DNA of 64,000 bases, taken from NCBI RefSeq assembly GCF_004210375.1, contig NC_134837.1:252489964-252553963 (forward strand). Reading direction: 5' to 3'. Every line of letters begins with the position of its first letter. Position 1 is the stretch's first letter. Of this stretch, positions 1,921 to 46,490 are shown piece by piece. Made by a program: the position numbers and the translations under genes. The stretch is from Tachypleus tridentatus. Lineage: Eukaryota. The notes beneath the pieces were generated by a model. That model did no database searches. It saw only the letters and a list, made by a program, of their open reading frames with translations, and was not told the DNA's origin.

Positions 1921-2196
1921 GGCCCGGCATGGCCAGGTGGTTAATGCACTCCACTCGTAATCTGAGGGTCGCGGGTTCGAATTCCTGTCACACCAAACAT
2001 GTTCGCTCTTTCAGCCGTGGGGACGCTATAATGTTACGGTCAATCCCACTATTCGTTGGTAAAAGAGGAGTCTAAGAGTTGGCGGTGGGTGATGATGACT
2101 AGCTGCCTTCCCTTTAGTCTTACACTGCTAAATTAGGGACAGCTAGCACAAATTGCCCTTGTGTAGCTTTGCCCGAAATTCAAAACAAACCAAACC
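1921..2196 (+). mobile_element. SINE-A full-length copy (~280 bp tRNA-derived SINE)
   Basis: tRNA-like head GGCCCGGCATGGCCAGGTGG (box A) .. GGTTCGAATTCC (box B). Conserved body runs CATGTTCGC..TCAGCCGTGGGG..TATAATGTTACGGTCAATCCCACTATTCGTTGGTAAAAGAG..AGTTGGCGGTGGGTGATGATGACTAGCTGCCTTCCC..CTAAATTAGGGAC..GTGTAGCTTTGCCCGAAATTCAAAACAAACC. Confidence 0.9.
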
Positions 2197-2235
2197 GTTG
2201 TTTCTCCTTTTGAGATTCATGTGGGAGGTCAACCG

Positions 2236-2345
2236 CTAGTACAGCAGTAAGTCTACGGATTTGCAAAACACTAACATCCTCGATTCGATTATCCTTGGTG
2301 GACTCAGCAGATGGCTCAATGTGGCTTTGATATAAGGAAACACTT
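2236..2345 (+). mobile_element. SINE-B copy, diverged
   Basis: ACAGCAGTAAGTCTACGGATTTGCAAAACAC..GGTGGACTCAGCAGATGGCTCAATGTGGCTTTGATATAAGGAAACAC. Confidence 0.7.
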
Positions 2346-2857
2346 ACTCATGTATGACATTGAAAACATATGGTTCGATCCCTCAAGGTGACAAGAATCA
2401 AGCTAATATTGTTTGTAATCTCTTTATATTTTACTTACTTTAAAATGGAAATATGTAAAAGTCAACTATTGGATATCTCTATGCAGTTTACCGTTGATTT
2501 TTCTTTAGTTAAAAAAATTATAAGTGGAACTCGGTGAAAAAAAAATGTTGGACTATGAGTGTGCACTCTCTATCGCTAGATGTCAGGACACGTTTAAGTC
2601 GAGTTCAAACACCTACACGATGATGAGTTGATTTTATTAAAATTTTATTTCCTATGTCGTGACAGAAATAGTTTAAAACAACAACAATAGGTTTATGATT
2701 TGTAATTTTGTAATAAAATAACAACAACCAGGGTTAGCTTTATAATATTGCATGTTTTATTTGGCAAGTTGTAACTTTAACTTAGAAGGACGGCAATGAA
2801 CCCGATATGAATTATATTTTGCTGTGATAGTCAATACCATATATGCTGGTAATCTGG

Positions 2858-2995
2858 TAGCCCAAGAGCCGGCAATCGACGGTGATGACTAGCTGCCTTT
2901 CTTATGGTCTACCATTTTAAAAATAGGGACAACTAGCACAGATAACCCTCGTGTAGATTTGCGTGAAAATTCAAAAACAAATAAACAATCAAACC
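2858..2995 (+). mobile_element. SINE-A 3' half (5'-truncated)
   Basis: GTAGCCCAAGAGCCGGC..GGTGATGACTAGCTGCCTTTC..AAAATAGGGACAACTAGCACAGATAACCCTCGTGTAGATTTGCGTGAAAATTCAAAAACAAATAAAC. Confidence 0.8.
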
Positions 2996-3063
2996 AAAAT
3001 CAAAATTAATATTTATTTGCCTCCTCAGATCATAAAGTATACGTTTACTAATAAGTTGAAATA

Positions 3064-3317
3064 GGGCTCGGCATGGCCAGGCGGGTTAAGGCGTTCAACT
3101 CGTAATCTGAGAGTCGCAGGTTCGAATCCTCATTGCACCAAACATGCTCGACCTTTCAGCCGTGGGGGCGTTATAATGGTACTGTCAATCCTACAAGAGT
3201 TGGCAGTTGGTGGTGATGACTAGCTGCCTTCCCTCTAGTCTTACACTGTTAAATTAAGGACGACTAACGCAGATAGCCCTCGTGTAGCTTTGCGTGAAAT
3301 TCAAAAAACAAAACAAG
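3064..3317 (+). mobile_element. SINE-A copy with internal deletion
   Basis: Head GGGCTCGGCATGGCCAGGCGGGTTAAGGCG..GGTTCGAATCC, full tail ..GTGTAGCTTTGCGTGAAATTCAAAAAACAAAACAAG. It lacks the CACTATTCGTTGGTAAAAGAGTAGCCC segment. Confidence 0.85.
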
Positions 3318-4023
3318 TTGAAATAAGAATTTTGGCTGTAATCATAAAAGTCGTACTTGAGTTCAAAAATATATTTTTGTGATAAAAACACCTGAATTTC
3401 TTGTGAAACAAAACTTATGATGTCACTTGGCTTTATAAAAATTGAACAATGACGTTCACTGTGCTTGGCATTAAGAATCTGTTTTGTTTTTATAGAAGTT
3501 ACTGGAATATTTTGAACGTATGCCAGTTAGCAGTTTATAAAAGAAACAAAACACAATTTTTCCATTTTTACCTTTTGTCATAAGATAAATATTTTTATAT
3601 CAGACACCCCTGACAAATTCACTTTTATACCTAATATATGGACAACAAAATAATCAGTAATAAAATGAATGAAAATAAATTATCCATCATTGCATCAGGT
3701 TCACATCCATCACTTGTTATCAATCCATCTTTACGTTATGCCTATAGCCATTAGTAGTTATTAATCCATCTTTACGCTATGTCTTTAGCCATCACTGCTT
3801 ATAATTCCATCCTCTACGAGGTTTATAGTCATCACTAGTTATTAATCCATCTGTAAGCTAGGTTTTCAGTGATCACTGATCATTAATCCATCTGTGATCT
3901 AGGTGTTCAGCCATGATTCATTCTCTAGAGAGGAACACAGCTGTAACTAATTTTAATCTCTTTTTTAATAACCACACACAAGGCAGAGCCAAATAGTCAG
4001 GGCGAGCAACTTAGCAATCTATG

Positions 4024-4240
4024 GGTCGCCGTCACACTGAATATGCTCGCTCCTTTGACCCTAGGGAGCATTATAATATTATAGTCAATCACACTATTCG
4101 TTGGTAAAAAAATAATCTAATTGTTGGCGGTGGGTGTTGATGACTAGTTGTCTTCCCTATTAGTGTTTCATTCCTAAATTAGGGGCGGCCAGCGCAGATA
4201 GCCCTCGTGTAGCTTTATGTGAAGTTCAATAAAACAAACA
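4024..4240 (+). mobile_element. SINE-A copy, diverged and 5'-degenerate
   Basis: GGTCGCCGTCACACTGAATATGCTCGC..ATTATAATATTATAGTCAATCACACTATTCGTTGGTAAAAA..TTGGCGGTGGGTGTTGATGACTAGTTGTCTTCCC..GCGCAGATAGCCCTCGTGTAGCTTTATGTGAAGTTCAATAAAACAAAC. Confidence 0.7.
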
Positions 4241-6235
4241 GATTCATTATCAATCACAGCATCCTCCCAGTTCAAGGGGTCAACGAATATGGTTCTCCGT
4301 TGTTTTGTATTCCTCACTGGATGTGTCAGCTTTCCCAGTTCAAACTTTCCATTTTTAGCCTGCTCGTCTTTCTTCGATTTTACGCATCAGAATCTCAGCA
4401 GACCTTCCCTTAAATTATCGCACCTTCCGTTTCTTACATCCAGCAGTTGTATTGTATGTTCGTTACATCCTTATGTTTTTTTTCTGTGTGTACGTTCGTC
4501 ATCATGAGTTTATGACACTACGTTTCGAATATTTCCAACTCATTTTGTTTCAGGTGAAACCACTCCCGTAGAGTAGAACAGACTACACGTGGCATTTTAG
4601 TCGTCTCTTCTTCAGTTCAAGTTTTAATTTGTCTCCCGTGAAATTCGTTGGAATTAAAGGATGCTGTTTTCACATTCCTATCTTTTGCTTTCATAATTGT
4701 CGCTTTTTCTGATACTGTTTCTAATTAAATAAACCTCTCCACATTCTTACCGTTTACTCTGATGCATATTCTGAGTGCTTCACCAGATTGTGAAACGGAT
4801 ATATCTCTAGCTTTGTTGCCATGTATTTTAAGCCTATTGTCTTGCTGTTATCAACTTATCTCTTAAGTAACCTTTGGATATATTTCTTGTACTCACTCCT
4901 AAGTGTTGCATCATCACCATATCTCTTATTACAGACTCCAATATCCTTCATCCCATCAATAATTAATCATTACTATCCGCTCTGCTTTGACAGCACCATC
5001 TTTTTCATATACGTCTCTTGTAACTGCCTACTAACTACTTAGTTCTCTGTCAGCTCAAACTGCCGCTTCTTTTAGGATTCACTTATCTGCTTGAGCCAAC
5101 TCAGAGTCTACTGTGGGATCTCCGTTACCTTCTCAAGATCAATCATCAAGTACTTTTTCAGAGCTTATGAACCATACGTACAGCTTTATTTGAGCTTCTA
5201 TGTTTTTGGTTTTTTTTTTTTACCTAACATCCTATGTGCGATTATGCTTATTCACATGCTTCGACTTCTTCTAAATTCGTTTTGAGTACGTAACAGCTCA
5301 GTGCCAACCTTATGTTTCGGTTTTAAAATACTTTATAGACGTGTGCGATCAAGCTGGTAATCCTTTACAGTTTGTATCTTAAGTTTCTTGAGTAACAACA
5401 CGGAAAAAATCTTTAAAAGTATATTAGCCTCGCTTGTAAAGTGAGACACAAACTGCGGTCAGATATTCAATTGATGCAGATTTTAATTTCCTTTAACCCT
5501 TTCGCTGGAAACTTGTATATGCGCAAGTTTTCCATTTCTAATTCTTCTTTTTCCAAAACTGTAGAGCTTTTGTTAATTAGTTTTATTCATTCCGTAGCGA
5601 ATCCAGTTTCCCTGTCATAGTTATAAACGTTTTTCACATACGCTGTCACACCCACTGGTGGCTACGTAGTATGTCTAAAGAATTAAAACACTAAAAACCA
5701 AGTTTCGATACCTTGGTGTGCACGGAACAGATATTCCATTATATAGCCTTATGTTTAATAACAATAAAAAACGCTCCACTCAACTGTCTTTAATATATCC
5801 AATTCCAAAAGGTTTTTGTATGCCTCTATTTGTAACGGCACCACTGGAAGACAGAGCAGTTTTCATATTCTACTGCGCATGTCACTCGTACCAGATGTTG
5901 TCCCACAATTTTTGCTCAGACATTCGTATCTTGCATGTCTACAAAAACATTATTTACTCTCCTATAACTTTGCCACTTTCTTGACACTTGTTTTCTGAAT
6001 GTCATCATTCATCCAGATTTGGTTTTTAACTTTTGTTTTCCTCCTATTTCCTACTTCCTGTTACACCTTAGCCCATTCATCTTCAGCAGCCATGTTTGCA
6101 AGTTCTTTTATTAGCATTTCAAGGATATAATAGTTAGTCCTTGGCTTACTAGTTATTCCACCAAAGAAGCTATTCCTCTGATATGTTCAATTATTCCAAA
6201 AAAAAAAAAAGTAATATCGTGTAGTCCTAGTTTGA

Positions 6236-6428
6236 CATGATCAGGTGATTAGAGTGCCCGACTCGCAATCTCAGCGTCGGGGATTCAAATCTTCGTCACC
6301 GAACATGCTCGCCCTTTCAGCCATGTAAACGTTATAATGTCACTATTCGTTGAAAAAAAAAAGTAGATCTAGTCTTACACTGCTAAATTATGGACGGCAG
6401 ATAATCCTCGTTTAGTTTTACACGTTAT
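6236..6428 (+). mobile_element. SINE-A copy, degenerate with internal deletions
   Basis: CATGATCAGGTGATTAGAGTGCCCGACTCGCAATCTCAGCGTCGGGGATTCAAATC..GAACATGCTCGCCCTTTCAGCCATG..TAGTCTTACACTGCTAAATTATGGACGGCAGATAATCCTCGTTTAG. Confidence 0.65.
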
Positions 6429-7299
6429 TCAGAACAATCCAAGTGATCTGTCACCGTCATCACCAAACTACTCTTTGAGCCAATCGTGACAATGCTAGAA
6501 AATAAGAGTTACTTTGCTTAATTACTGACAAATATTTGCTATTTTCTTCGGGTACACTTTTCAAACGAATTGAAAATGTTAGAAGAAACTTCGTGTACTC
6601 GTGGTTTCAGAATTTCTTATTTGCTTTCAGAATGGAGGAGCTGTGTTTGATAACATATCTGCTTTTGAAGCGTCACGTTTGGTAGTTTTAATTGGAGTAA
6701 ACAAAGAGGTAAGTTGAGTTTTTTATACTAAACTCCCTCCCATTTTAAATACACTTCTCACCTAAGTTGTTTTTAACATCGTAAGAAGGTTTAAGAAATT
6801 ATTTCTTCCAACATTTCAAAGACGTTTTTTTTACAGCTTAAAAATCGTTCATTCCAGAAACTAGTGTTACTTATTCACTTTAATATTAAACCATTATTTC
6901 GTAAAAAGATTCACTTCAAAAATATGAGAACTCTTTTAAACCATTTTACTCTTCGGTTGCTTTAATTTTTGCCAATTAGAACTAACACGAAATCTAATAT
7001 GAATTTGCAGGCGGTAGAGATGTACATTAACATATCGAGTTGTAAATAAACAGAGGTTAAGTACTTTACATAGAAATGATTTTGGTGCCTTACCGCGTCG
7101 TTACAGTCTAAGTCGCTAAGTTTAGTTTTGCTCCATCTGATGACCATGTATTTTGATAATAGCCATGCAGCGTAGTTCTATTGTCAGATGTTTCGTCATA
7201 AGTTTGTCATGGCCAGCACATTATCTTAATGAATGCTTTCCACAGTACATCTAGTATGAAAGTATCAAGGTTTCCAGTGTTCTTTGCAACAGTCCTATT

Positions 7300-7402
7300 A
7301 CACAGTATGTCTACGGATTTACAACGCTAAAATCAGGGGTTCGATTTCCCTCGGTGGGCTCAGCAGATAGCCTATGTGGCTTTGCTATAAGAAAAACACA
7401 CA
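7300..7402 (+). mobile_element. SINE-B copy
   Basis: TACACAGTATGTCTACGGATTTACAACGCTAAAATCAGGGGTTCGATTTCCCTCGGTGGGCTCAGCAGATAGCCTATGTGGCTTTGCTATAAGAAAAACACACAC. Confidence 0.85.
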
Positions 7403-8686
7403 CCTATTACACAGAAATCCAAAGGCGATTTGACCAATTTGTTTCTTATGGAATGTCATGAATTCCTGTTTTATTCTCTAACCGCTTTAAGTATTTGTCA
7501 GTTGAACGAGAGGTATTATTGGAAGTCTTATCTTGGTACATCCATTCGTATCTGTTGGTCGCTTTCCTAGACAGAGATTGTTTTCTTGATTAGGCCGAGT
7601 ACAGTTTATCGAGGACGTGGACGACTTTTGCCACTGACTTTGAGATTGTAGATTCTCATCTGTAACAAAACGTCACACTTTGCTTACCACAGTTGAATAC
7701 GACTTGTTGCAGATCTCTTTCTTGATAGTCCTGGTGTTCCAATGATACATATGTATATTCCTTTATCGTTTATAATCATGAAGAACACGGAGTATCCTGC
7801 CTTGAAAATTCTAAACTCCCTATCTGAACACATTTTTATGATCCGGGTATATGAAAATTTGACTTCGGAACTGACTGTTAAACACCTTTATTCAAAAGCG
7901 AGTAATTTTCGATGACGCCTTCTACCTAAGAAACGTCAAACATTCAAAATGTGGTTCTGAAAACCATGCTAATTGACCGAGTTTTATATTGGTTATGGTT
8001 GTCACATGACTGGCAGATTTGCATATTCAATATTATTTTAATATAACGTACAGCTACCCTCTTCACAGTTTGATTAAAAGTTATCTGAAGAGTGGATTTT
8101 AGTCTTTCAAGGAAGGAAGAAGAAAATGCATTTACCTAGCGTAAGGGTAAGAACTATTATAGAATTTGGCATTTTTATGGCTCAGGTATAACAATATCTA
8201 ATTCTGAGTTACTGACTAAAGCAAAATAAACCTGTTAACAGCATCTGCTTTATCCAGCTTTGAACCAAATATGGGATTAACTATCACTCTCATAACGCAG
8301 CTGTCCCGCCCTCCATTGCTCAACAGTGAATATAAAGACCTATAATCTGATATGTAAGTATTGCTGTTTGAAAGTTTTTTTTCTTTTGGCAATTTGACAA
8401 AAGTAATTTTTTTATTGCATGGAATTTGAATTCACCTGATAAAAGGGATGACGTCATTTATTTTCGATACTGAGATTGTTTTTAACATTTTAGTTTAAAA
8501 TACTAGAATATTTTTGGACTCAAACAAATTAATGTGTCTTTTAACTTACGTAAATATTTATACTGTCCTTATTTGTCTTTCATGTTTCCAACAGGAACTT
8601 CCGTGCAGTCTAAAATAAAACGATGTGAATTACAAGTGATTTCTACAAGCGGTTATAAAGATTAACGTTCGTTGCCAAAGCTAATT

Positions 8687-11077
8687 ATGACCAATGAAAG
8701 TTTCCTGGCACGGACTCTGTCCCAGGTTAATCTAGTATCGCCCCCTACTGCATTCTTTTCAAATCGTAACAGCCACACGTCCATGCGGAACAGCAGTGTA
8801 TCTTTATTAGCCAACTTCTCGTCTATGTCCAACTGGTTGACTACAACAGTGTCCATAGGGTCAGAGGTCAAACTGTTGGTAGAAGAAACTGGATCAAATC
8901 TTCTGGATGGTTTGTCGCTCGTGTGTTTAAATAAGAGAAATGGTGAAAACTATACAGTTCATTGTGATAACGCCACAAACAGTACATCGGTAGCTGTTAA
9001 TACTCCTGTCGCACCATATTCTCTGTGGCTAACAATATTCATAGCTGTCTCCATTGGTCTGTGTATTATACTTACTGTTGCTGGAAACATACTCGTATTA
9101 ATGGCTTTTGCAGTAGAACGAGCCATTCGACAGCCAAGTAACTATTTTATAGTCTCCTTAGCTGTATCAGATCTTCTTATTGGAATGGTATCGATGCCAT
9201 TCTACGCTGTTTATGTATTAGTTGGTCGGTGGGATCTCGGACCCATTCCTTGTGACCTGTGGTTAGCCACTGACCACACCGTTTGTCTCGTTTCTATTTA
9301 CACCGTACTTCTTATAACCATCGACAGGTACTGCTCTGTTAACATCGCCGCCAAATACCGAAACTGGCGAACTAGGACCAAGGTAATATTCATGGTAGCA
9401 GTAACGTGGATTATTCCTTTCCTCGTATTCTTCATTAGCATTATGGGATGGGAACATTTTATTGGTTATAGAGATCTAAACCCTGGAGAGTGCGCTGTAC
9501 AGTTTCTTAAAGACCCAGTCTTCAACACTTCACTGATTTTTGGTTATTTTTACGCCACGTTAGTAGTGCTCTTTGTTCTTTATGGAGGAATATACAAAAC
9601 AGCCAGTGACATGCAGAAGAAGTCAGCTGCGAAACAAAAGAAAATGCAGAGTCTAGTGGCCATGGGGAAATCGTCAGGAAAACGTAAAACGATTGGTTTA
9701 TCTAAAACACAGAGTACTTTACTCTGTCAAGACAAACCCAAAACAGCCCAACCAGGAAATTTAGATACTACAACATCTGTAAACCAAATTAATCCCCAGA
9801 ACTCCCAGGCTGTAGGGAGTGGGAATTGTCCATCCAACCAGAAAACCTTGTTAAATAAAACTGGAAATGCTGAAGCTCTCGTCTTCTCGGAGAAGAAAGA
9901 CGCATCTGATCCGGACCGGTCCAGTAGCCCAATGTTTGATTCTGATGAGGAAAATTATCAAAAGCCGGAGAAGTCCTTAAAGCCAGCAAAAACTCCTAAA
10001 GATAAAAGTGCACCTAAGGCTACCCCTCTTAATAATAAACGAGAAAAAATAAAAAACACTAATATCGTCAGATCTCCAATTACCGACGAACAGATCCTCA
10101 AATTAGTTCCTCCGCCTTCGGCTCTACAAAGGAATCTTCCTTTGGATTCAGGTAAAGATACAATCAGAAATGAGAGCGTTATGGATACTGAAAAGATTAT
10201 GTTCCCTTCGGATGCACCATCTGTAGACTTGAAGATCACGACAACAGCTGATAACAATAAAATAATAAATACTATTCCTTCCGACGAAAGAAATGTTATT
10301 TCCAACGAAAAACCGCATCCTCCCAAAACACTCAACTTGACTTCGGTAAGAGAGGAACAACCATTAGAATATCTAGAAACCTCTGACATGAAGTATATTG
10401 ATCAAGAAAGTTCTGTGGCCATGCCCTCTCCAGCCAGTGAAACAGTCCTCACAGATAATCCACAACCAACAGAAGATACACCTGAGCCACGAACCAAGGA
10501 CAAATCAGTAAATACTGACCCTGTGATTTTTTATGACTTTCCTTCACTTCAACCCGAACAATGTAAACAGAAGAACAGCATGGTAAGCATGCAGGTAGAG
10601 AATATATCTGAATCCAAGATGGTAACGCGCGTAGTGAAACCGGAGGAGATGCAGCCAATCGTGAACCATGATTGTGACCAACCAAACACTACGGTTGCTT
10701 CTACAAAAGACTTTACGACGACTCGTTCGAAAACACAATTCGCGACAGTCCTCGGAAGGAAAGGGAAAAAGTACAAAAAGCACACGAAAGAAAAGAGGCA
10801 AAAATCCAAATCCGAAAATCGTGCTAGGAAAGCACTGAGGACTATCTCCTTTATTTTAGGAGCATTTGTTTTGTGTTGGACGCCATATCACATATGTGCA
10901 CTGGTAGAGGGATTCTGCTCCGATCCTGCCGGCTGTGTTAACTATCACTTTTTCTATTTTACGTATTTCTTGTGCTACGCTAACAGTCCCATTAACCCTT
11001 TTTGTTACGCTTTAATGAATCAGCAGTTTAAGAAGACATTTTACCGTCTTCTTCGTGGCGATTTTCATCGAACATAG
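8687..11077 (+). CDS. Class A (rhodopsin-like) biogenic-amine GPCR, muscarinic-acetylcholine-receptor-like; single exon, 796 aa
   Basis: Continuous ORF; first ATG at 8687 (the supplied ORF at 8672 starts at TTG). Seven hydrophobic helices; Asp2.50 (LAVSDLL); Asp3.32 (WLATDHT, the amine counter-ion); DRY (ITIDRYCSV); CWxP (FVLCWTPY) in TM6; NPxxY (NPFCYAL) in TM7. N-terminus of ~115 aa with 8 N-x-S/T sites. Lys/Ser/Thr/Pro-rich ICL3 of ~400 aa (about nt 9600-10830), typical of muscarinic-type receptors. The short antisense ORFs inside it are artefacts. Confidence 0.85.
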
Positions 11078-11147
11078 CCAGTTGGATTCATCATTCTGGA
11101 TCGTTACCTTCGTCATACCACCTTGCTACTCCTTCTTGGTGTTCTAC

Positions 11148-11265
11148 AGTGGCACAGCGCTATGTCTGCGGAATTACAACTCCAGAAACCGGTTCTCGAT
11201 ACCCGTGGTGAGAAGTGCACGTATAGCCCATCGTGTAGCTTTATGCTGAGCTTCAAACAAATAAA
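11148..11265 (+). mobile_element. SINE-C copy in the presumptive GPCR 3' UTR
   Basis: GGCACAGCGCTATGTCTGCGGAATTACAACTCCAGAAACCGGTTCTCGATACCCGTGGTGAGAAGTGCACGTATAGCCCATCGTGTAGCTTTATGCTGAGCTTCAAACAAATAAAAAAC. Starts 70 bp after the GPCR stop codon. Confidence 0.75.
11260..11265 (+). promoter_or_regulatory. AATAAA poly(A) signal candidate, contributed by the SINE-C tail, ~185 bp after the GPCR stop
   Basis: CAAACAAATAAAAAAC. This is the first canonical hexamer downstream of the CDS. Confidence 0.3.
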
Positions 11266-13781: not shown

Positions 13782-14060
13782 GGCCGGCATGTCCAGGTGG
13801 TTAAGGCAAAAGACTCGTTATCCTAGGGTCGCGGGTTCGAATCCTCGTCACACCAAACATGCTCGCCCTTTCAGCCGTGGCAACGTTATAATGTTACGGT
13901 CAATCCCCCTATTCGTTAGTAAAAGAGTAACCCAAGAGTTGGTGGTGGGTGGTGATGACTAGCTGCCTTCCCTCTAGTCTTACACTGCTAAATTAGGGAC
14001 GGCTAGGACAGATAACCCTCGTGTAGCTTTGCGCGAAATTCAAAACAAAACAAATCAAAC
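13782..14060 (+). mobile_element. SINE-A full-length copy
   Basis: GGCCGGCATGTCCAGGTGGTTAAGGC..GGTTCGAATCCTCGTCACACCAAACATGCTCGCCCTTTCAGCCGTGG..GGTGGTGATGACTAGCTGCCTTCCCTCTAGTCTTACACTGCTAAATTAGGGACGGCTAGGACAGATAACCCTCGTGTAGCTTTGCGCGAAATTCAAAACAAAACAAATCAAACC. Confidence 0.9.
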
Positions 14061-15477
14061 CTTTATTTACTGTTGTTCCAAGTAGTTGTTCATGGACACT
14101 GATGATATTCGTATTATTAGTACGTTTGCCATATCTTAAGCAGCCTGATAAGACTTGGTATCGTGTCAAAGACCTCATCATGCTAGATATAGCAAACACG
14201 GTGCTTTGCTTTCAATCTTGGGCTCTCAGAATAACTACTTTTATTCTACGTTTCTGCCACAGTTTTCATGTTTCTGTTGTAGTGATTAGGCCTTGGATTC
14301 AATCCTGGGTCTTCTTGGTGAAAGTCTGGTGGGTTATCTACTCAACTGGTGTCTTCAAAAATTAGTATCGAGTTATATAACTAGACTCATTAATAATTAG
14401 ACTCTGGCAATCGTACGGGCTACTAATTATGTCCACAACCCTACCTGTCTCGTGTGATTACGTAAAGTTACGTTTCAGTCATACGCATTTTACGTATTTA
14501 CACGTTTAACTGGCATATGCCGTTGAGTTATTTAAAATCTTAATACAATTATTAAAGTGATTTAAAAGAAAATACGTCTATGTTCACACACAACACGAGT
14601 GTATTTGATTATATACAAACGCTTTACGAAATATTTGTAGTTTTGTGTATTGTTAGGCCTATAATCTGTATGCAGTCCATTTTCTGTCGTCTATATAAGA
14701 GTGAATGTACTGAGACACTAGAAACTCTACCACAGCCTGTGAAGAAATAAAATAATTAGAAAAACAACAAATGTGTGTGTTTTTGATAATATTTGCAAAA
14801 ACAATAGTAAAATAAAATTTGAGGAAACATGTATACATCGAAGAATTTCACGACACCCTCTTGATTTTGCAAAACTTATATTTTATATGACAGAAAAATA
14901 TTGCAGAATATACATTTATCTAGTATTTCATAAATTAAGCAAAGTGAATACGGAATTTTTAGTTGCAGGATTAGATATACTTTTAATCATTTTTCAGCAT
15001 AATTTCCTTGCTATTTAATAACGCCTAAATAATGTTGTAACGCTGTTAGAACTTTATGTACGGTTTTAACTTAGGATACTTTAAATGTTTCAATTATTCA
15101 AAGTATTAGAGTAAGATGTATTACAATTTCACTTCTAAATAGTAATAGAGGTCGTATCTGTTTGTTATCTTCTTAGTATTTCATTTACAACAAATAAGGA
15201 AATTCCCTCGTTTCAATGGCGACAACTTACTTAGAAGTGCCAGTAACCGAAAATAAATATTTAAATATGATTACTAAGGGCAGGAAGTAATTAGGATAAA
15301 ACACGTGAATAAAAGAAGTGAATTACACACAAAATATAAAAGCGCAACTTCAGACAGAAGCCTAGAAATCAATTGAAATTTAACTGAAAATGGGAAAATC
15401 ATATCTGGTTAGTTCAATGCTAATATAATTACAATATTATTTAGAAACATAACGCCACATTTGGGTTTAAGTTCGAG

Positions 15478-15580
15478 TGTTGTTTATGTACAAAGCTAAC
15501 CATGAGCTAGCTATCCGTGTTCTGCCTACCACGGGTATTGAAACCCCGATATTTAACATCGTAAGCTTCAACCACTGCGT
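15478..15580 (-). mobile_element. SINE-C copy (reverse)
   Basis: Plus strand reads GTTTATGTACAAAGCTAACCATGAGCTAGCTATCCGTGTTCTGCCTACCACGGGTATTGAAACCCCGAT..AGCTTCAACCACTG, the reverse complement of the SINE-C core. Confidence 0.7.
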
Positions 15581-15764: not shown

Positions 15765-15895
15765 TTTCCCCTGGTGGCTCACCAGTAAATATGATGAGTA
15801 CTTGTCACGCAAAAAATCAGGTTTCTATACCCGCGGTGGGCATAGCATAGTTAATCCAATCTGTAGCTTTGTGCTGCAAATAAACAAGTAAACAC
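15765..15895 (+). mobile_element. SINE-C copy, diverged
   Basis: CCCCTGGTGGCTCACCAGTAAATATGATGAG..CAGGTTTCTATACCCGCGGTGGGCATAGCATAGTTAATCCAATCTGTAGCTTTGTGCTGCAAATAAACAAG. Confidence 0.55.
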
Positions 15896-16023: not shown

Positions 16024-16260
16024 CCATTAAATAAAACATAATATCGTTGTTGCTTTTGTGGCCTGTACTGTAAGGGAGCCACAAAAGAAACTTGTAAGAA
16101 CCATTAAATAAAACATAATATCGTTGTTGTTATTGTAACCTGTAGTGTACTGGAGCCACAAAAGGAACTTGTAAGAACCATTAAATAAAACATAATATCT
16201 TTGTTGTTATTGTGACCGGTACTGTACGGGAGCCACAAAAGGAACTTGTAAAAACCATAT
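16024..16260. repeat. 77-bp tandem repeat, 3 copies
   Basis: CCATTAAATAAAACATAATATCGTTGTTG..TGTAACCTGTAGTGTACTGGAGCCACAAAAGGAACTTGTAAGAA repeated at 16024, 16101 and 16178. Confidence 0.9.
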
Positions 16261-16859
16261 GCACATAATACTGCTTCATTTCGAAACCTTTTCTTAAGGG
16301 CGGTTTCTTAGTTATGGATCTTCGATGAGTGTTTGTTAAGGTTTTTTAGACTTTGAGAATACAAGGAACTACATTAGGTCATTTGTGGATTTCCTCATTG
16401 AAGGCTATGGCCCACAGACACACAAGATTTTGTCCCAGTGATAGTTTGAAAAAGGTTTCGGTTTTGATATTGTTTCAAATATCAGAACCACTGGACAAAA
16501 TGTCTTGAAACTTCTATTTACAGTCACACCGTGTATTCTTGTTTGTCAGCATCAGGACCGCCACATTGTGGAAATGGAAAAAAAGCTGCACGATGCTTGA
16601 TTGAATATTTTTATAATAAAATCACACTGTGCTACCTGTTGTGTCGTCCATGAGGAATTTAACCCTGGATTTTAGATTTGTACGTCCGTTAACATACCGC
16701 TATGTCACTAGTGGACACAATGCTTGTTAAGAACAGAAACTGTGAATAAGGTTTCTTATATTATTTTAAATTGAACTAAGATTTACACTTTAAAATTACA
16801 CTTTAAGAAAACTTTAAGATTCACTTTCTAAAATAAATCATAGCACGTTTCCTAGCTAC

Positions 16860-29726: not shown

Positions 29727-29793
29727 ATATTTGTTTGTTTAATTTCGAGAAAAGCAACTTGAGGGCTACTTGCGCTCGCCGTACCTAATTTCG
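29727..29793 (-). mobile_element. SINE-A tail fragment (reverse)
   Basis: TTTGTTTGTTTAATTTCGAGAAAAGCAACTTGAGGGCTACTTGCGCTCGCCGTACCTAATTTCGG is the reverse complement of the SINE-A 3' module. Confidence 0.6.
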
Positions 29794-29796
29794 GCC

Positions 29797-29915: not shown

Positions 29916-29918
29916 CAA

Positions 29919-32394: not shown

Positions 32395-32410
32395 ATCATA
32401 CTCTCGTTAC

Positions 32411-32657
32411 TTGTTTTGAATTTCGCGCAAAGCTACACGAGGGCTATTTGCACTAGCCGTCCCTAATTTAGCAGTGTAAGATTAGAGGGAAGACAACTAG
32501 TCATCATTACCCATCGCCAACTCTTGGGCTATTCTTTTACTAACTAATAGGGGGATTGACAGTCACTTTATAACGCCCCCACAGCTAAAAGGGTAACCAT
32601 GTTTGGTGTGATGGGGCTTCGAACCCGCGACCCTCAGATTACACGTCGAGTACATTC
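32411..32657 (-). mobile_element. SINE-A copy (reverse), head-truncated, wedged between two Tc1 copies
   Basis: TTGTTTTGAATTTCGCGCAAAGCTACACGAGGGCTATTTGCACTAGCCGTCCCTAATTTAGCAGTGTAAGATTAGAGGGAAGACAACTAGTC..GGGGCTTCGAACCCGCGACCCTCAGATTACACGTCGAGTACATTC. Confidence 0.85.
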
Positions 32658-33020
32658 AAGAAACCCCTCAAACATCTCACAAGTGACAGAATTCTGCATT
32701 GAGGAGTGGGGCAAACTTTCTTCAGACCAATGACAGAGACTGGTAGATGGCTACAAGAAGCGTCTCACTGCAGTTATTTCAGCCAAAGGGGTAACACTAG
32801 CTATTAGGGGGTAGGGTGTCCTAACTTTTTCTTCAGTTAGAATATGCATTTTTGTAGAATTACATTTACAGATCTTGAAAAGTATTTTCTTCAGTTTTTA
32901 GTTATATTCCTATAATCTCTCAGTATTGTTACAATTGAGATTAAAATTTCCATTTATCCAAAATTGCTACATATATACACAGGCTTTCATAGGGTGTCCT
33001 AATTTTTTCACATGACTGTA
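32658..33020 (+). mobile_element. Partial second copy of the same Tc1 element: transposase C-terminal coding remnant plus 3' IR, plus orientation
   Basis: AAGAAACCCCTCAAACATCTCACAAGTGACAGAATTCTGCATTGAGGAGTGGGGCAAACTTTCTTCAGACCAATGACAGAGACTGGTAGATGGCTACAAGAAGCG.. then an IR ending ..TTTTTTCACATGACTGTA. It carries the same TGA (SDQ*QRLVDGY) as the full copy. Confidence 0.85.
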
Positions 33021-33170
33021 TGTGTTATCTTCCATGGTTGTTGCAATAATATTGAACTCGCGTTTTGGATTTTGGTCGTGCACTGTGTTACTTGCTTGCT
33101 GTGTATATACATATGTTCTCGAGAATTAAGAAAACACGACCCTGACCTGTAATCCAACACTTTTACTTTA

Positions 33171-33494: not shown

Positions 33495-33575
33495 TTGTCG
33501 GCTTAAATTTCGACGCTAAAAATTGGATTTCGATACCCCTGGTGGGCAGAGCAAAGATAGCCTGTTGTGTGTATA
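33495..33575 (+). mobile_element. SINE-C fragment
   Basis: AATTTCGACGCTAAAAATTGGATTTCGATACCCCTGGTGGGCAGAGCAAAGATAGCCTGTTGTGTG. Confidence 0.6.
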
Positions 33576-33886
33576 TATATATATGTATACCCTTAACAAC
33601 AACTAAACCAGTGGATCAGTAAAATGTTATGCTATATATTCAAATAATGTGTTAGAAAATTACTGAACTAGCAAGTTTTACTTTAAATTACAGCAATTAT
33701 AAAAGTAGTTTAGAGCTATTAAGAAAATGAAATAAATTTTAAATGATATTTCCTTCCTAATTATATTCACCAGTAAACAAAAGCTTTGACCTTGATGAGA
33801 ACAATGAAAGTCACAAGTTAAAATTAAATGTTCAAGCACAAATTTACAAATGAACATTTATTATGTTCTAAATTGAAATTACTTAT

Positions 33887-34008
33887 CCCAAGAGTTGGCG
33901 GTGGGTGGTGATGACTAGCTGCCTTCACTCTAGTCTTACATTGCTAAATTAGGGATGGCTAGCGCAGATAGCCCTCGAGCAGCTTTGCGCGAAATTGAAA
34001 AACAAGTT
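33887..34008 (+). mobile_element. SINE-A 3' fragment
   Basis: CCCAAGAGTTGGCGGTGGGTGGTGATGACTAGCTGCCTTCACTCTAGTCTTACATTGCTAAATTAGGGATGGCTAGCGCAGATAGCCCTCGAGCAGCTTTGCGCGAAATTGAAAAACAAG. Confidence 0.85.
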
Positions 34009-35044: not shown

Positions 35045-35155
35045 TGTGTGTGTGTTTTTCGTACAGCAAAGCCACAAAGGGCTATCTGCTCAGCCCACCG
35101 AGGGGAATCGAACCCCTGATTTTAGCGTTGTAAATCCGGAGACATACCGCTGTCT
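35045..35155 (-). mobile_element. SINE-B copy (reverse)
   Basis: GTGTTTTTCGTACAGCAAAGCCACAAAGGGCTATCTGCTCAGCCCACCGAGGGGAATCGAACCCCTGATTTTAGCGTTGTAAATCCGGAGACATACCGCTGTCTC. Confidence 0.85.
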
Positions 35156-35178
35156 CTCACAAAAATAAAGATAGTTTT

Positions 35179-35400
35179 CAGTCATTACGTTATATTAAGA
35201 CCCTTGACACAAAGTTGACATTCAGTCATTACGTTATATTAAGAACCTTGACACAAAGTTGACATTCAGTCATTACGTTATATTAAGAACCTTGACACAA
35301 AGTTGACATTCAGTCATTACGTTATATTAAGAACCTTGACACAAAGTTGACATTCAGTCATTACGTTATATTAAGAACCTTGACACAAAGTTGACAATCA
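35179..35400. repeat. 44-bp tandem repeat, 5 copies, immediately adjoining the SINE-B copy
   Basis: CAGTCATTACGTTATATTAAGAACCTTGACACAAAGTTGACATT, near-perfect repeats. Confidence 0.9.
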
Positions 35401-37365: not shown

Positions 37366-37485
37366 ACTGAGTATACAGCGGTAAGTCTTCGAATTTACAA
37401 CGCTAAAATTAGAGGTTAGATTTCCCCTCGGGAAACTCAGCAGATAGCCCAATGTGGCTTTCCGATAAGAAAACACATGCACACA
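37366..37485 (+). mobile_element. SINE-B copy
   Basis: CTGAGTATACAGCGGTAAGTCTTCGAATTTACAACGCTAAAATTAGAGGTTAGATTTCCCCTCGGGAAACTCAGCAGATAGCCCAATGTGGCTTTCCGATAAGAAAACACATGCACAC. Confidence 0.8.
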
Positions 37486-37721
37486 TATTCTACTGAGTTA
37501 ATCTTTTATATGATTCTGTTTAGGATTTTGTTTTACAAGCTTACTAAATAATCTCTGTGTCAGTATATTGTCAGGATAGTCTTATTTTCTCTTCGTTTTT
37601 AGGATACGAGTTTTTCGTTAGGTGATACATTGATAATAATATTTTTATTTTCTGTAACGTGTGCCATTTATATGGTGAATGTGCATTTTTAGTAAAATTA
37701 TTTAAAAGCCTTGTAAAAGGT

Positions 37722-37980
37722 TGGTTTGCATTTCGCGCAAAGCTACACAACGGCTATCTGCGCTAGCCGTCCCTAATTTAGCAGTGTAAAACTAGAGGGA
37801 AGGCAGGTAGTCATGACCACCTACTGCCCACTATTGGACTACTCTTTTACTAACGAATAGTGGGATTGATCGTCACATTATAACACCCCCACGGCTGAAA
37901 GGGCAAGCATATTTGGTGTGATGGGGATTCGAACCCGTAACCCTCAGATTACGTGTTGAGTGATTTCACTACCAGGCCAT
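37722..37980 (-). mobile_element. SINE-A copy (reverse), near full length
   Basis: GGTTTGCATTTCGCGCAAAGCTACACAACGGCTATCTGCGCTAGCCGTCCCTAATTTAGCAGTGTAAAACTAGAGGGAAGGCAGGTAGTC..GGGGATTCGAACCCGTAACCCTCAGATTACGTGTTGAGTGATTTCACTACCAGGCCAT. Confidence 0.85.
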
Positions 37981-39242: not shown

Positions 39243-39375
39243 CCCCCAATGGCTCAGCGGTATGTCTGCGGACTTCCAACGCTAAAACCGGGTTTCGATA
39301 CCCGTGGTGGGCATTGTGGGCACAGATAGCCCATTGTGTAGCTTTCTGCTTAATTCAAAACAACAACAACAACAA
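39243..39375 (+). mobile_element. SINE-C full-length copy followed by (AAC)n
   Basis: CCCCCAATGGCTCAGCGGTATGTCTGCGGACTTCCAACGCTAAAACCGGGTTTCGATACCCGTGGTGGGCATTGTGGGCACAGATAGCCCATTGTGTAGCTTTCTGCTTAATTCAAAACAACAACAACAACAAG. Confidence 0.85.
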
Positions 39376-41564: not shown

Positions 41565-41665
41565 CGGTGGCAAGTCTGAGGGCTTATGACACTGAAAATT
41601 GGATTTCGATAATCGCAGTGGGTATAGTACAGCTAGCCGGTTATGAAACTTTGTGCGCGATAGCG
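41565..41665 (+). mobile_element. SINE-C copy, diverged
   Basis: GGTGGCAAGTCTGAGGGCTTATGACACTGAAAATTGGATTTCGATAATCGCAGTGGGTATAGTACAGCTAGCCGGTTATGAAACTTTGTGCGCG. Confidence 0.55.
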
Positions 41666-41772: not shown

Positions 41773-42060
41773 GGCCCGGCATGGCCAGGTGGGTTAGGGC
41801 GTTCTACTCGTAGTCTGAGGGTTACGGATTCGAATCCCCGTTGCACCAAACATGCTCGCCCGTTCAGCCGTGGGGGTGTTATAATGTGACGATCAATCCC
41901 ACTATTCGTTGGTTAAAGAGTAGCCCAAGAGTTGGCTGTGGGGGGTGATGATTAGCTTCCTTCCCTCTAGTCTTACACTGCTAAATTAGGGACGGCTAGA
42001 GTAGATAGCTCTCGTGTAGCTTTTCGAGAAATTCAAAAACAAAGAAAACAAAAACAAACC
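41773..42060 (+). mobile_element. SINE-A full-length copy, first of a tandem pair
   Basis: GGCCCGGCATGGCCAGGTGGGTTAGGGCG..GGATTCGAATCCCCGTTGCACCAAACATGCTCGCCCGTTCAGCCGTGGGGGTG..GTGTAGCTTTTCGAGAAATTCAAAAACAAAGAAAACAAAAACAAACC. Confidence 0.9.
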
Positions 42061-42079
42061 CATGTGTATATAATTTAAA

Positions 42080-42348
42080 GGCCCTACATGGCCAGATGGA
42101 TAAGGCGCTCGACACGTAATCAGAGGGTCGCGAGTTCGAATCCCCGTCACACAAAACATGCTCGCCCTTTCAGCCGTGGGGGCGTTCTTTGTGTCAGTTA
42201 TTCGTTGGTAAAAGAGTAGCCCAAGAGTTGGCGGTGGGTGGTGATGACTAGCTGCCTTCCCTCTAGTCTTACACTGTTAAATTAGGGACGGCTAGCGTAG
42301 ATAGCTCTCGTGTCGCTTTTCGCAAAATTCAAAACAAAATAAAACAAA
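42080..42348 (+). mobile_element. SINE-A copy, second of the tandem pair; 20-bp spacer; small internal deletion
   Basis: GGCCCTACATGGCCAGATGGATAAGGCG..GAGTTCGAATCCCCGTCACACAAAACATGCTCGCCCTTTCAGCCGTGGGGGCGTTC//TTATTCGTTGGTAAAAGAGTAGCCCAAGAGTTGGCGGTGGGTGG..GTGTCGCTTTTCGCAAAATTCAAAACAAAATAAAACAAA. Confidence 0.9.
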
Positions 42349-42513: not shown

Positions 42514-42585
42514 GTTTGTTTGTTTTTGAATTTCGCGCAAAACTACACGAGGGCTATCTACGCTAGCCGTACATAATTTAGCATG
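42514..42585 (-). mobile_element. SINE-A tail fragment (reverse)
   Basis: GTTTGTTTGTTTTTGAATTTCGCGCAAAACTACACGAGGGCTATCTACGCTAGCCGTACATAATTTAGCATG. Confidence 0.8.
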
Positions 42586-43924: not shown

Positions 43925-44045
43925 TATTTGTTTGTAGGTAAATACAAAGCAATAGAATGGGCTATCTGTTCTCTGCTCACCACGGGTGTCGAAACCCGGT
44001 TTCTAGCGTTATTAGTCAGCGAACATGCCGCTGTGCCACTAGGAG
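43925..44045 (-). mobile_element. SINE-C copy (reverse)
   Basis: TTTATTTGTTTGTAGGTAAATACAAAGCAATAGAATGGGCTATCTGTTCTCTGCTCACCACGGGTGTCGAAACCCGGTTTCTAGCGTTATTAGTCAGCGAACATGCCGCTGTGCCACTAGG. Confidence 0.8.
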
Positions 44046-44104
44046 ACGTGATAAATGATGAACCATATTGTTGTCGTATTAGTTTATTATTAAAAATGGG
44101 TGTG

Positions 44105-44310
44105 GTTTGGTTTGTTTTGAATTTCGCGCAAAGCTACATGAGGGCCATCTGTGCTAGCCGTCCCTAGGTCAGCAGAGTAAGATTTGAGGGAAGGCAGCTA
44201 GTCATCACCACCCACGGCTGAAAGGGCGAGCATGTTTGGTGTGATGGGATTCGAACTTACGACCCTCGGATTACGAGTTGAGTGCCTTAACCACCTGGCC
44301 ATGCCGAGCC
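44105..44310 (-). mobile_element. SINE-A copy (reverse) with a ~70-bp internal deletion, adjacent to the preceding SINE-C
   Basis: GGTTTGGTTTGTTTTGAATTTCGCGCAAAGCTACATGAGGGCCATCTGTGCTAGCCGTCCCTAGGTCAGCAGAGTAAGATTTGAGGGAAGGCAGCTAGTCATCACCACCCAC//GGCTGAAAGGGCGAGCATGTTTGGTGTGATGGGATTCGAACTTACGACCCTCGGATTACGAGTTGAGTGCCTTAACCACCTGGCCATGCCGAGCC. Confidence 0.85.
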
Positions 44311-44382
44311 ATTGAAAATGGGAACAAAAGCTTTTGGGCAGTTAGTAATTTGAGACAGGAATTTGATTTTTTTATTCAAGTT

Positions 44383-44470
44383 TGTTTGTTGGTAAGTTCA
44401 AAGCTACACAACACGTTATTTATGCTTTGACTACCATTGGTGTCGTTATAATTCGGTGGTCCACTGGGGT
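44383..44470 (-). mobile_element. Degenerate SINE-C-like fragment (reverse)
   Basis: GTTTGTTTGTTGGTAAGTTCAAAGCTACACAACACGTTATTTATGCTTTGACTACCATTGGTGTCGTTATAATTCGGTGG resembles the reverse complement of the SINE-C tail and box-B region. Confidence 0.35.
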
Positions 44471-45547
44471 GGGGGTGGAGCTTTTATTGAAATCGTTTTG
44501 AATTTCTTCGTGTGAAAATGAACCCTTGTGACGATAAGTGTTGGTTTGTTTTTCTTAATTGGATATTTGCACTTTTTTAGTCGTAGGGGAATCGATTTCC
44601 ACATATCAGTTTATACCAACCGTGTGATGTGACAACAAATAGAGTAATAGTAAATTAACTTTCAATTGAAGGTTCGCATCAATCATAATGTAAACACAGC
44701 ACGAATAAAGGTTTACAGAATTATGTTTTAATTTAAGTTTTCACTTTTGAATACCGTACCACTAGAATCAGCTCTGGACTCGGTACTAACCACACTGTAT
44801 TCAAAGCTAACATCAAAAACTATTCTCTATAAAACTGATATCTTTGAACATATTGACTTGGAAGCGGATTTCGCTGGCATGGCAAAGTTGAAAACAGTGT
44901 GAAAAATGATAGAAACCCTCGAATACTGCTGTTAAAGCGATATCGACCGAGCGATTAATCTTTTTTGGAACTTAGCCAAATCTAGACTTTAAGTTTTAGC
45001 AATGTAACTGATCAAGAACATGAATTCCTTCAGCTGACAAAAGCAGAAGGTTTCGTTAGAAATAAATGTGAAAATGAATCGTGTAGCTTTAGGCAGATGT
45101 ATTTAACCATCTTACTTTTACGACATTTCCTAATACATAATTGAAAAAAAACACACAAAGAAATCGATATACCTCTGTCAAAATGAGCCATACAGTGACA
45201 GAACATTTAACAACTAGATCATTTAGTCTCAAACTTTCACGTAAGGGCTTCAATTAACAGATGTCTACACTACGAAAACTAACATCAGTGTAAAAATTCA
45301 TCTCGTTCTGAATAAACAATACATCAAAATGTACCTAAATGTTTGTTTTATATTCGAAACATTTTGAGTATACAATATCAAATTGAGAAAAAAACAACTA
45401 CTCTCATATTTTTACCCACGAACCAGGGTTGCTGAGAAAGGTTTTATTTTTAAAGTAGATTCAGTATTTTTAATCCTTTCAAGGCCTTTTATCATTTCTA
45501 CCTCTCCTGATCATATGTCCAACTCGTTTTATAACTACATTTTAGTT

Positions 45548-45668
45548 GTTGTTTTGAATTAAGCACAAAACTACACAACGGGCTCTCTGTGCTCTATCCA
45601 CCATGGGTATCGAAGCCCCGTTTTAAGCGTTGTAAGTCCGCAGACATACAGCTGAGCCACTGGGAGAC
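45548..45668 (-). mobile_element. SINE-C full-length copy (reverse)
   Basis: GTTGTTTTGAATTAAGCACAAAACTACACAACGGGCTCTCTGTGCTCTATCCACCATGGGTATCGAAGCCCCGTTTTAAGCGTTGTAAGTCCGCAGACATACAGCTGAGCCACTGGGAG. Confidence 0.85.
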
Positions 45669-45934
45669 ATTTTAGTTGTTATGATTTATATTTAATTCGT
45701 TTAAAGGTAAGAAGGATATTGTATGCTCCTAACATTTGATGTCAGTTATTCTAAAGTTAGTATTTAAATTTATGTTGTTCCTTGATTATTTTTTTTTACT
45801 TTTAGATGGAAAGGTTTAATCTAATCCTACCTTAATTGCATTAGCAAATAAACAGAATTACTTTTATAATGTGTATTTACAGCTGGTTTCTTTATACGCT
45901 TATCATGTTCAGACTTCTTTTTATATATCTATAT

Positions 45935-46055
45935 TTGTGCGTGTGTGTGTATTTTATTATAACAAAGCCACATCGAACTATCTGTTGAGTCCGCCGAAGG
46001 GAATGGAACCCCTGATTGTAACGCTGTAAATCCGCAGACTTGCTGCTGTACTAGC
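45935..46055 (-). mobile_element. SINE-B copy (reverse)
   Basis: GTGTGTGTATTTTATTATAACAAAGCCACATCGAACTATCTGTTGAGTCCGCCGAAGGGAATGGAACCCCTGATTGTAACGCTGTAAATCCGCAGACTTGCTGCTGTAC. Confidence 0.8.
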
Positions 46056-46199
46056 AGGGGACCATCTATATTTTATATAGTTAATGCTTCAAAATTTTCT
46101 CACGTTACACTTAGATTTTAATATTTCATCACAAACATATTATATACATTTCGATGTACTAAATTATCATGTCTAGTAATTTATTCATTCCATTTACGA

Positions 46200-46490
46200 G
46201 GCCTGGCATGGCCAAGCGTGTTAAGGCGTGCGACTCGTAATCTGAGGGTCGCGGGTTCGCATCCCAGTCGCGCCAAACATGCCCGCCCTTTCAGCCGTGG
46301 GGGCGTTATAATGTGACGGTCAATCCCACTATTCGTTGGTAAAAGAGTAGCCCAAGAGTTGGCGGTGGGTGGTGATGACTAGCTGCCTTCCCTCTAGTCT
46401 TACACTGCTAAATTAGGGACGGCTAGCACAGACAGCCCTCGAGTAGCTTTGTGCGAAATTCAAAAAAAACAAACAAACAAACAAACAACC
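46200..46490 (+). mobile_element. SINE-A full-length copy (GCCAAGCG subfamily; closest to consensus, likely young)
   Basis: GGCCTGGCATGGCCAAGCGTGTTAAGGCGTGCGACTCGTAATCTGAGGGTCGCGGGTTCGCATCCCAGTCGCGCCAAACATGCCCGCCCTTTCAGCCGTGGGGGCGTTATAATGTGACGGTCAATCCCACTATTCGTTGGTAAAAGAGTAGCCCAAGAGTTGGCGGTGGGTGGTGATGACTAGCTGCCTTCCCTCTAGTCTTACACTGCTAAATTAGGGACGGCTAGCACAGACAGCCCTCGAGTAGCTTTGTGCGAAATTCAAAAAAAAC(AAAC)n. Confidence 0.95.

Follow-up and report, generated by a model that had tools for sequence, protein, structure and literature searches.

Two lineages of tRNA-derived SINEs ending in one hairpin-bearing 3′ tail in the horseshoe crab Tachypleus tridentatus

Different tRNA heads on one long interspersed element (LINE)-type tail are the classic Okada model of the partnership between LINEs and short interspersed elements (SINEs). 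Ohshima and Okada reportedly described 'stringent' pairs in which SINE and LINE share their 3′ tail, for example eel UnaSINE1/UnaL2, salmonid HpaI/RSg-1 and a tortoise RNA polymerase III (Pol III) SINE with CR1. RTE elements are said, after Malik and Eickbush in 1998, to have very short 3′ untranslated regions (UTRs) that end in AT-rich trinucleotide repeats, and Bov-tA/BovB is reportedly the classic tRNA-RTE case (a RepeatMasker class). Here we describe three SINE families, A, B and C, in a 64-kb stretch of the genome of the horseshoe crab Tachypleus tridentatus (contig NC_134837.1, positions 252,489,964 to 252,553,963 of the forward strand; this whole stretch is hereafter the window), and set them beside these systems. 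RepeatModeler-based annotation makes 'tRNA-RTE' the dominant SINE class in T. tridentatus and C. rotundicauda and I elements the dominant LINEs (PMC7815833), and Nong et al. (2021) count 364,667 SINE copies in T. tridentatus, or 3.57% of the genome (PMC7815833). A tRNA-derived CORE-SINE with a 265-bp consensus, 'Lipo', has been described from Limulus polyphemus (Luchetti and Mantovani, 2016; PMC5804259), and there are good general descriptions of how SINE parts are reshuffled as modules (PMC5804259, PMC4758252 and PMC11481361).

We found that the three families are tRNA-derived SINEs of ordinary type, that they fall into two head lineages, and that both lineages end in one 3′ module of ~45 nt (GCRCAGATAGCCC...GTAGCTTTGYGC). 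In lineage A, a tRNA-like head with boxes A and B leads into a body of ~150 bp and then into the module; in lineage C/B, a different tRNA-like head is joined straight to the module, with little else. The resemblance to the stringent pairs lies in the tRNA-derived head, the internal Pol III promoter, the 3′ stem-loop placed just upstream of short tandem repeats instead of poly-A, and the presence of one tail on different SINE families of one genome; the difference is that kinship between the tail and a LINE 3′ UTR is an assumption here. The best explanation, which we regard as probable, is that the two lineages keep one tail through its recognition by one LINE lineage.

The census was made by blastn of the A, B and C consensus sequences against the window and yielded ~32 SINE-A, 12 SINE-C and 8 SINE-B copies or fragments (52 in total), which together occupy 8.8 kb, or 13.7% of the window; a sequence-only reading of the same DNA had put the number at about 45, which was right. 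Consensus lengths taken from aligned copies are ~270 bp for A, ~120 bp for C and ~115 bp for B, and three of the 32 SINE-A pieces are owed solely to a segmental duplication (47363-51376, repeated at 59987-64000). The motifs singled out by the sequence-only reading occur well in excess of chance: the A box B, GGTTCGAATCC, is found 20 times at ≤1 mismatch (0.45 expected), the C-type box B 15 times (3 expected) and the tail core, CAGATAGCCCNNNTGTAGCTTTG, 23 times at ≤3 mismatches (0 expected). Its marker of a young SINE-A subfamily was recovered at 22459, 29930 and 46211, and a fourth copy (28048-28069, −) can be added; copies bearing the marker differ mutually by 5-8%, and A copies in general diverge from their consensus by 6-20%.

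Boxes of the patterns TRGCNNAGTGG (box A) and GGTTCGANNCC (box B) lie at tRNA-like spacing near the 5′ ends of the elements. The A consensus has box A, TGGCCAGGTGG, at positions 10-20 and box B at 53-63, which is the spacing of a tRNA; the corresponding pairs are TGGCTCAGCGG and GGTTTCGATACC in C, and TAGTACAGCGG and GGTTCGATTCC in B. ARAGORN recognised cloverleaf-like folds in the heads only at relaxed thresholds, with the young A subfamily Thr(CGT)-like and B and C left without an assigned tRNA, and the sole match to the Rfam tRNA model is one A head (SINE-A 18969-19235, −), whose 25.2 bits lie below the threshold of 29. At default settings ARAGORN found no tRNA in the window, and the default ARAGORN and Rfam scans of the window found no RNA genes. 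All families are short, dispersed and present on both strands, and the A consensus has stop codons in every frame. These are at most undescribed examples of an established SINE type, and they probably already sit in automated repeat libraries.

Target-site duplications (TSDs) of 10-16 bp occur in each of the three families, around full-length copies as well as truncated ones. Among SINE-A copies they flank the full-length elements at 1921-2193 (+; consensus 1-273, 91.6%; TSD CCGTTGTTTCTC) and 18969-19235 (−; GTCTGGCAAGAG), a full-length element with an internal deletion at 3065-3312 (+; AAGTTGAAATA), another internally deleted element at 44107-44310 (−; CCCATTTT(C/T)AAT), the least diverged of the young-marker copies at 46200-46474 (+; 5.6%; CCATTTACGA) and a 5′-truncated copy at 33884-34001 (+; consensus 148-265; ~12 bp, AATTGAAATTAC). 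For SINE-C they were found around the full-length reference copy, which ends in (CAA)5 (39245-39367, +; AACAAGTTTAGCA), and around a further full-length copy (45545-45664, −; AACAACTAAAATGT), and for SINE-B around 7295-7403 (+; CCTATTACACAG) and 35045-35153 (−; ATTTTTGTGAGAG). The consensus 3′ end is retained by 28 of the 32 SINE-A pieces, with starts that spread from position 1 to 243. These observations support the view that the copies spread by LINE-type target-primed reverse transcription.

Comparison with a second horseshoe crab adds filled and empty sites to this picture. We sampled Limulus polyphemus at five loci (L001-L005; 110 kb) that had been chosen via homologues of a G protein-coupled receptor (GPCR), which brings the horseshoe crab DNA searched to 174 kb in total (64 kb of Tachypleus and 110 kb of Limulus). 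Families A and C are abundant in the Limulus sample, and B is nearly absent from it (one weak fragment). Locus L002 is collinear with the window at 3.4-15.8 kb, with 90% identity within the receptor gene and 74-82% to either side of it, and three insertions are common to both species at the same sites: an old SINE-A (4026-4239, +; L002 5290-5558), a SINE-C (5658-5759, +; L002 7040-7144) and a SINE-C fragment (15510-15565, −; L002 22073-22153). The sites of SINE-B 7295-7403, precisely, and of the full-length SINE-A at 13784-14054 (+) are empty in Limulus, with a single copy of the target sequence at each, and three SINE-C copies are confined to Limulus (L002 8842-9772). Activity of the families therefore began before Limulus and Tachypleus separated and continued afterwards; the last common ancestor of living horseshoe crabs is placed at ~135 million years (PMC7815833). 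With Pol III boxes at tRNA spacing, TSDs, variable 5′ truncation and filled or empty sites in hand, we agree with the sequence-only reading of these elements as LINE-mobilised tRNA-derived SINEs and consider their identity as SINEs solid.

Locus L001 also contains far more diverged relatives of SINE-A (3900-4175, 15170-15420, 18480-18745 and 21060-21240), with variant tRNA-like heads, a variant body and the same tail; one such body has TCAGTTCAGAATTA where SINE-A has ACACTGCTAAATTA. These relatives point to an older, broader A-type superfamily in horseshoe crabs.

The composite elements proposed earlier did not survive closer inspection. In the supposed tandem dimer at 41773-42348, the second SINE-A (42087-42347, +) bears its own TSD, ATATAATTTAAA, and is 86.7% identical to the first (41773-42051, +), which is usual for unrelated copies. 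In the supposed heterodimer at 29797-30212, the young-marker SINE-A (29919-30194, +) is flanked by CCTAACAAACAA, which is part of the terminal repeat of the full-length SINE-C upstream (29798-29914, +), and therefore represents a separate insertion into the tail of that SINE-C. The other supposed C-plus-A heterodimer (43925-44310) lies on the minus strand, where the order is reversed to an A, a 66-nt spacer and a C (43928-44043, −). We accordingly rejected dimeric or composite SINE families, since each member has its own TSD and the neighbours are independent insertions; adjacent SINEs are expected because there is one SINE per 1.3 kb and AT-rich targets are preferred. The tails of the adjacent A pair (41999-42034 and 42295-42330) have rare variants in common, GTAGATAGCTC...GCTTTTCG, which give a U-U mismatch in the stem described below, and their heads differ as much as those of unrelated copies; the pair could stem from the same minor source subfamily or have undergone local gene conversion of the 3′ halves.

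The similarity between the two head lineages is confined to the tail. A and C align at A 224-272 and C 71-119, where 41 of 49 positions are identical (score 54 vs. 15.7 ± 2.2 in shuffles, 0/1000 shuffles reaching it), and upstream of the tail they are no more alike than shuffled sequence, box B excepted; the claim of a shared 3′ module on unrelated A and C 5′ halves thus stands. The earlier count of three heads does not: B and C are homologous end to end (score 87 vs. 14.3 ± 2.1 in shuffles), and there are therefore two head lineages, with B a derivative of the C lineage. The B tail is an altered derivative of the module, shortened slightly within the loop and again 3′ of the stem, and terminates in (AC)n.

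Within the module, a 7-bp stem, GCRCAGA ... UUUGYGC, encloses a loop of 15-16 nt (UAGCCCnnnUGUAGC) and is followed by (G/U)(A/U)AAUUC and then by short, C-punctuated, A-rich terminal repeats, which are (CAAA)n in family A and either (CAA)n or (CAAA)n in family C. In an alignment of 54 tails from both species (stem in columns 2-8 with 25-31), 86.8% of the stem cells pair (vs. 81.9 ± 0.9 in shuffles) and 25 cells carry double-sided changes (vs. 12.2 ± 3.5), neither value being reached by any of 500 shuffles, which ignore kinship; when the stem register is slid, merely 22-62% of cells pair. Two compensatory pairs separate the family consensuses, the one a G-C in the main A subfamily that is A-U in the young A subfamily and in C, the other a C-G in A and C that is A-U in B. 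A two-hairpin fold of the tail obtained with RNAfold was rejected in favour of the outer 7-bp stem, its second hairpin being without excess covariation. The 7-bp stem with a 15-16-nt loop is the best-supported picture of the tail, and a module whose stem is kept by compensatory changes is what one would expect of a tail under 'stringent' recognition by a LINE reverse transcriptase.

Under the explanation that we favour, Pol III would transcribe the SINEs from their internal promoter, and one LINE lineage would supply a reverse transcriptase that recognises the 3′ hairpin together with the terminal repeats (the 'stringent' mode) and copies the SINE RNA into nicked AT-rich targets. This shared recognition would be why two unrelated heads retain the same tail. 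The partner would most likely be an RTE-type LINE or another non-L1 LINE; a 45-nt module followed by (CAA)n fits the short 3′ ends of RTE elements. RTE, one of the candidates named by the sequence-only reading, is a reasonable guess to which the published 'tRNA-RTE' class (PMC7815833) and the endonuclease remnant described below lend indirect support. In B, the derivative of C, the tail may have been altered because the partner drifted or because B moved to a different one. The idea of a shared partner takes its footing from the conserved hairpin tail and is plausible on that footing.

Several results weigh against this explanation. A search by nhmmer with three tail consensuses found no LINE 3′ end with the module in the 174 kb, where all ~80 tails sit on A, B or C bodies, and neither a motif scan of the window, nor Pfam on part of it, nor tblastn across the 174 kb detected coding sequence for a reverse transcriptase. 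The terminal repeats vary by family, (CAAA)n, (CAA)n or (AC)n, which could mean more than one partner, and the published 'tRNA-RTE' label cannot be linked to A, B or C specifically. As to the hairpin, tails folded as single sequences do not exceed shuffled sequence in stability (z = −1.0 to +0.1), and the shuffle control for stem covariation leaves relatedness in. The stem pair that turns from G-C into A-U lies at fast-mutating CpG sites and many single copies carry one half of the change only, and because of this the case for covariation rests on family-level consensus states.

On the LINE side, the endonuclease remnant that had been reported near 48.3 kb is indeed present, in degenerate form, at 48339-48554 (−; ...IIPQVYAPSSDNEEDKIENFYSDIEE...), with no tail nearby. 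Its duplicate at 60964-61179 (−) belongs to a second, fuller copy that spans 59377-61179 (−), includes GSDHNPV at 59533-59580 and is interrupted by a SINE-A inserted at 59746-60015 (+). The best block of the remnant is 42% identical over 31 aa to an approximate sequence of the BovB (RTE clade) endonuclease, and this resemblance may be taken as a hint, not as a classification. Regular-expression motifs for reverse transcriptase and endonuclease returned only noise in the window; Pfam on the concatenated open reading frames (ORFs) of 39-64 kb returned a Tc1 helix-turn-helix and an N-acetyltransferase alone, the endonuclease remnant being too decayed; and tblastn of the window and L001-L005 with approximate queries (CR1 and L1 reverse transcriptases and the L1 endonuclease) gave nothing below E = 3.9. 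Protein searches seeded by the remnant, which is too decayed for these as well, gave nothing when word-indexed and two spurious repeat proteins with exhaustive HMMER, and a search of the protein database for taxonomic spread with a SINE-A-derived ORF gave no candidates. Scanning metagenome, viral and prokaryote collections for the tail produced 0, 1 and 2 matches, respectively, all of them bare 23-mers without SINE context and at about chance level. In a full-text search of the literature, long SINE strings never occurred and 10-11-mers matched unrelated primers only.

Families A, C and B could each be served by a different, related LINE lineage, with similar 3′ hairpins and different terminal repeats; B, with its loop indels and near absence from the 110 kb of Limulus DNA, suits such an arrangement, and bivalve SINE superfamilies are reported to use multiple LINE partners (PMC11481361). 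However, the 41/49 identity of the A and C tails includes the segment from stem to repeat, some C copies end in (CAAA)n as A copies do, and TSD lengths are the same in all three families, so that we hold separate partners to be a possible but rather doubtful arrangement. Alternatively, the module could be shared by history alone, its 3′ end or the heads having been swapped through template switching, with a relaxed-recognition LINE using the A-rich terminal repeats and the hairpin not derived from a LINE. The lack of a tail-bearing LINE in the 174 kb, the A-rich ends and a tail fold that is not unusually stable are all in keeping with this, and exchange of SINE modules is well documented (PMC4758252, PMC5804259). 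It is nevertheless unlikely in our view: the ends are C-punctuated short repeats and not poly-A, the tail has been kept across families that are older than the Limulus/Tachypleus split and have been active since, and the stem is kept via compensatory pairs in three family consensuses, which neutral inheritance does not predict.

A more speculative possibility, to which we give little credence, is that in Xiphosura the tail has long existed in its own right as a 'reverse transcriptase recruitment' module, swapped between unrelated heads by recombination and maintained by selection in the Limulus and Tachypleus lineages alike for well over 100 million years; it would perhaps have ceased to match the 3′ end of any extant LINE, or never have matched one, so that the SINEs would maintain the recognition element independently. 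The window also holds Tc1 elements, palindromic hairpins and satellites, and the families might by that token be derived from DNA transposons, in the manner of miniature inverted-repeat transposable elements (MITEs), or form a tandem or satellite family with chance tRNA-like motifs. Against this, the copies have no terminal inverted repeats, their TSDs are neither a fixed TA nor 2-8 bp, they are scattered in both orientations, and 5′ truncation is variable with the 3′ end retained and simple repeats at it; we regard an identity of this kind as effectively refuted by the TSDs, the empty sites in Limulus and the truncation pattern. Recognition of one tail by one LINE lineage thus remains the explanation that we prefer.

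Set beside other described families, A, B and C share with the tRNA-RTE SINEs published for the same organism an abundance of tRNA-headed elements and a short tail whose tri- or tetranucleotide repeats are AT-rich, like those of RTE 3′ ends; the published label, by contrast, comes from an automated classifier, and PMC7815833 is without consensus sequences, tail structure or family relationships. At 13.7% of the window, as against 3.57% published for all SINEs genome-wide (PMC7815833), the three families imply either that this region is unusually SINE-rich or that the published masking under-annotates older copies. Lipo is similar to SINE-A in host group, in having a tRNA-related head that contains both boxes, A and B, and in length (265 bp vs. 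~270 bp), and SINE-A is abundant in Limulus; compared by description only, SINE-A may be Lipo. The SINE-A body scored no better against the CORE region of mammalian MIR (an approximate sequence) than most shuffles, 483 of 500 doing as well, and CORE domains have a mean similarity of only 63% between taxa. The mollusc 'jigsaw' or highly-conserved-domain SINEs likewise recombine heads, bodies and tails as modules and include long-lived families common to several species (PMC4758252, PMC11481361), but the module shared among them, as those sources present it, is a central domain conserved across phyla, whereas here it is a 3′ tail within one order, Xiphosura.

The value of these families is mostly one of annotation, and the understanding of SINEs is unchanged by them. 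Their copies sit beside and inside genes and other transposons, their insertions are clean presence/absence markers between horseshoe crab genera, and the consensus sequences and tail structure would help the repeat masking of horseshoe crab genomes. The 45-nt module offers a direct handle for fishing out the partner LINE, and the compensatory changes in its stem provide a simple model, open to testing, of how a reverse transcriptase may recognise its RNA in a chelicerate.

The remaining SINE-A pieces are as follows. Full-length copies lie at 25959-26226 (+; located by blastn), 28616-28890 (+; 16% diverged) and 51240-51513 (+; blastn), the last of these repeated by the segmental duplication at 63865-64000 (+), where it is cut by the window end. 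The young marker is carried by 22450-22570 (+; internal deletions) and 27808-28080 (−), and an internally deleted copy at 6236-6437 (+) lies within a Tachypleus-only 0.8-kb segment. Truncated at the 5′ end are 2823-2986 (+; starting at about consensus 108), 24060-24231 (−; consensus 98-269), 50581-50782 (+; consensus 65-274) and its segmental-duplication copy at 63205-63407 (+), together with two pieces reduced to the tail, 29730-29791 (−; consensus 210-273) and 42514-42583 (−). A fragment at 24507-24609 (−) covers consensus 110-215 at 72%, and the piece at 55789-56005 (−) covers 25-233, without the tail. Further copies were placed by blastn at 23060-23310 (−), 37721-37980 (−) and 53550-53779 (−), one lies within a Tc1/mariner element (32411-32650, −), and the last 29 nt of a tail are found at 47363-47391 (+).

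SINE-C is further represented at 11147-11257 (+) and 22039-22138 (−), by fragments at 15807-15875 (+) and 33513-33570 (+), by a 5′-truncated copy whose tail module is duplicated in tandem (22156-22252, +) and by a possible remnant at 41574-41656 (+; 72%). The SINE-B reference copy lies at 37374-37484 (+), with others at 1674-1785 (+), 2236-2343 (+), 25613-25716 (−) and 45941-46054 (−) and a possible remnant at 16608-16701 (−; 72%).

The window in which these elements lie is AT-rich (~35% G+C), and in self-comparison 20 of its 64 kb are repeated inside it. An intronless ORF at 8672-11077 (+; 801 aa) encodes a GPCR of the aminergic/muscarinic type whose third intracellular loop is very long, and its product matches the mAChR gar-2-like protein of T. 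tridentatus (NCBI) at 100% identity. DNA identity to the Limulus orthologue is 90%, and both species have several paralogues of ~70%, which is consistent with the known whole-genome duplications. A second ORF, at 53743-54819 (+; 358 aa), has an arylamine N-acetyltransferase domain (PF00797, E = 4e-10) and is probably a single-exon gene; its first 37 bases are covered by SINE-A 53550-53779.

Other repeats surround these genes. The Tc1/mariner element that hosts SINE-A 32411-32650 spans 30766-33025, with terminal inverted repeats of ~385 bp that are 89% identical and a transposase ORF at 31159-31911 (−; 250 aa; HTH_Tnp_Tc3_2, E = 2e-21), and a further Tc1 remnant lies at 52412-52858. The direct segmental duplication is 98.5% identical over 4018 bp, its copies lie 12.6 kb apart, and it continues past the window end; two SINE-A copies and the endonuclease remnant are doubled by it. 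Its left breakpoint falls inside the tail of SINE-A 59746-60015, and therefore just the final 29 nt of that SINE are present at 47363-47391. A satellite with a 32-bp unit (CAGTCTTCTGTTTCATTTGGATTGTATTGTTA; 27.5 copies, 95% identity) occupies 1-880 and is cut by the window start, and a degenerate 35-bp unit is arrayed in ~31 copies at 16867-17957 (69-74% identity), with higher-order periods of 105 and 140 bp. Three small arrays lie at 16024-16258 (77 bp × 3.1), 35177-35400 (44 bp × 5.1, at 98%) and 3707-3893 (41 bp × 4.6). Finally, near-perfect long hairpins at 47214-47305 and 58582-58757, both repeated within the window, give sub-threshold matches to several unrelated microRNA families, and they are most likely MITE-like palindromes, not microRNA genes.

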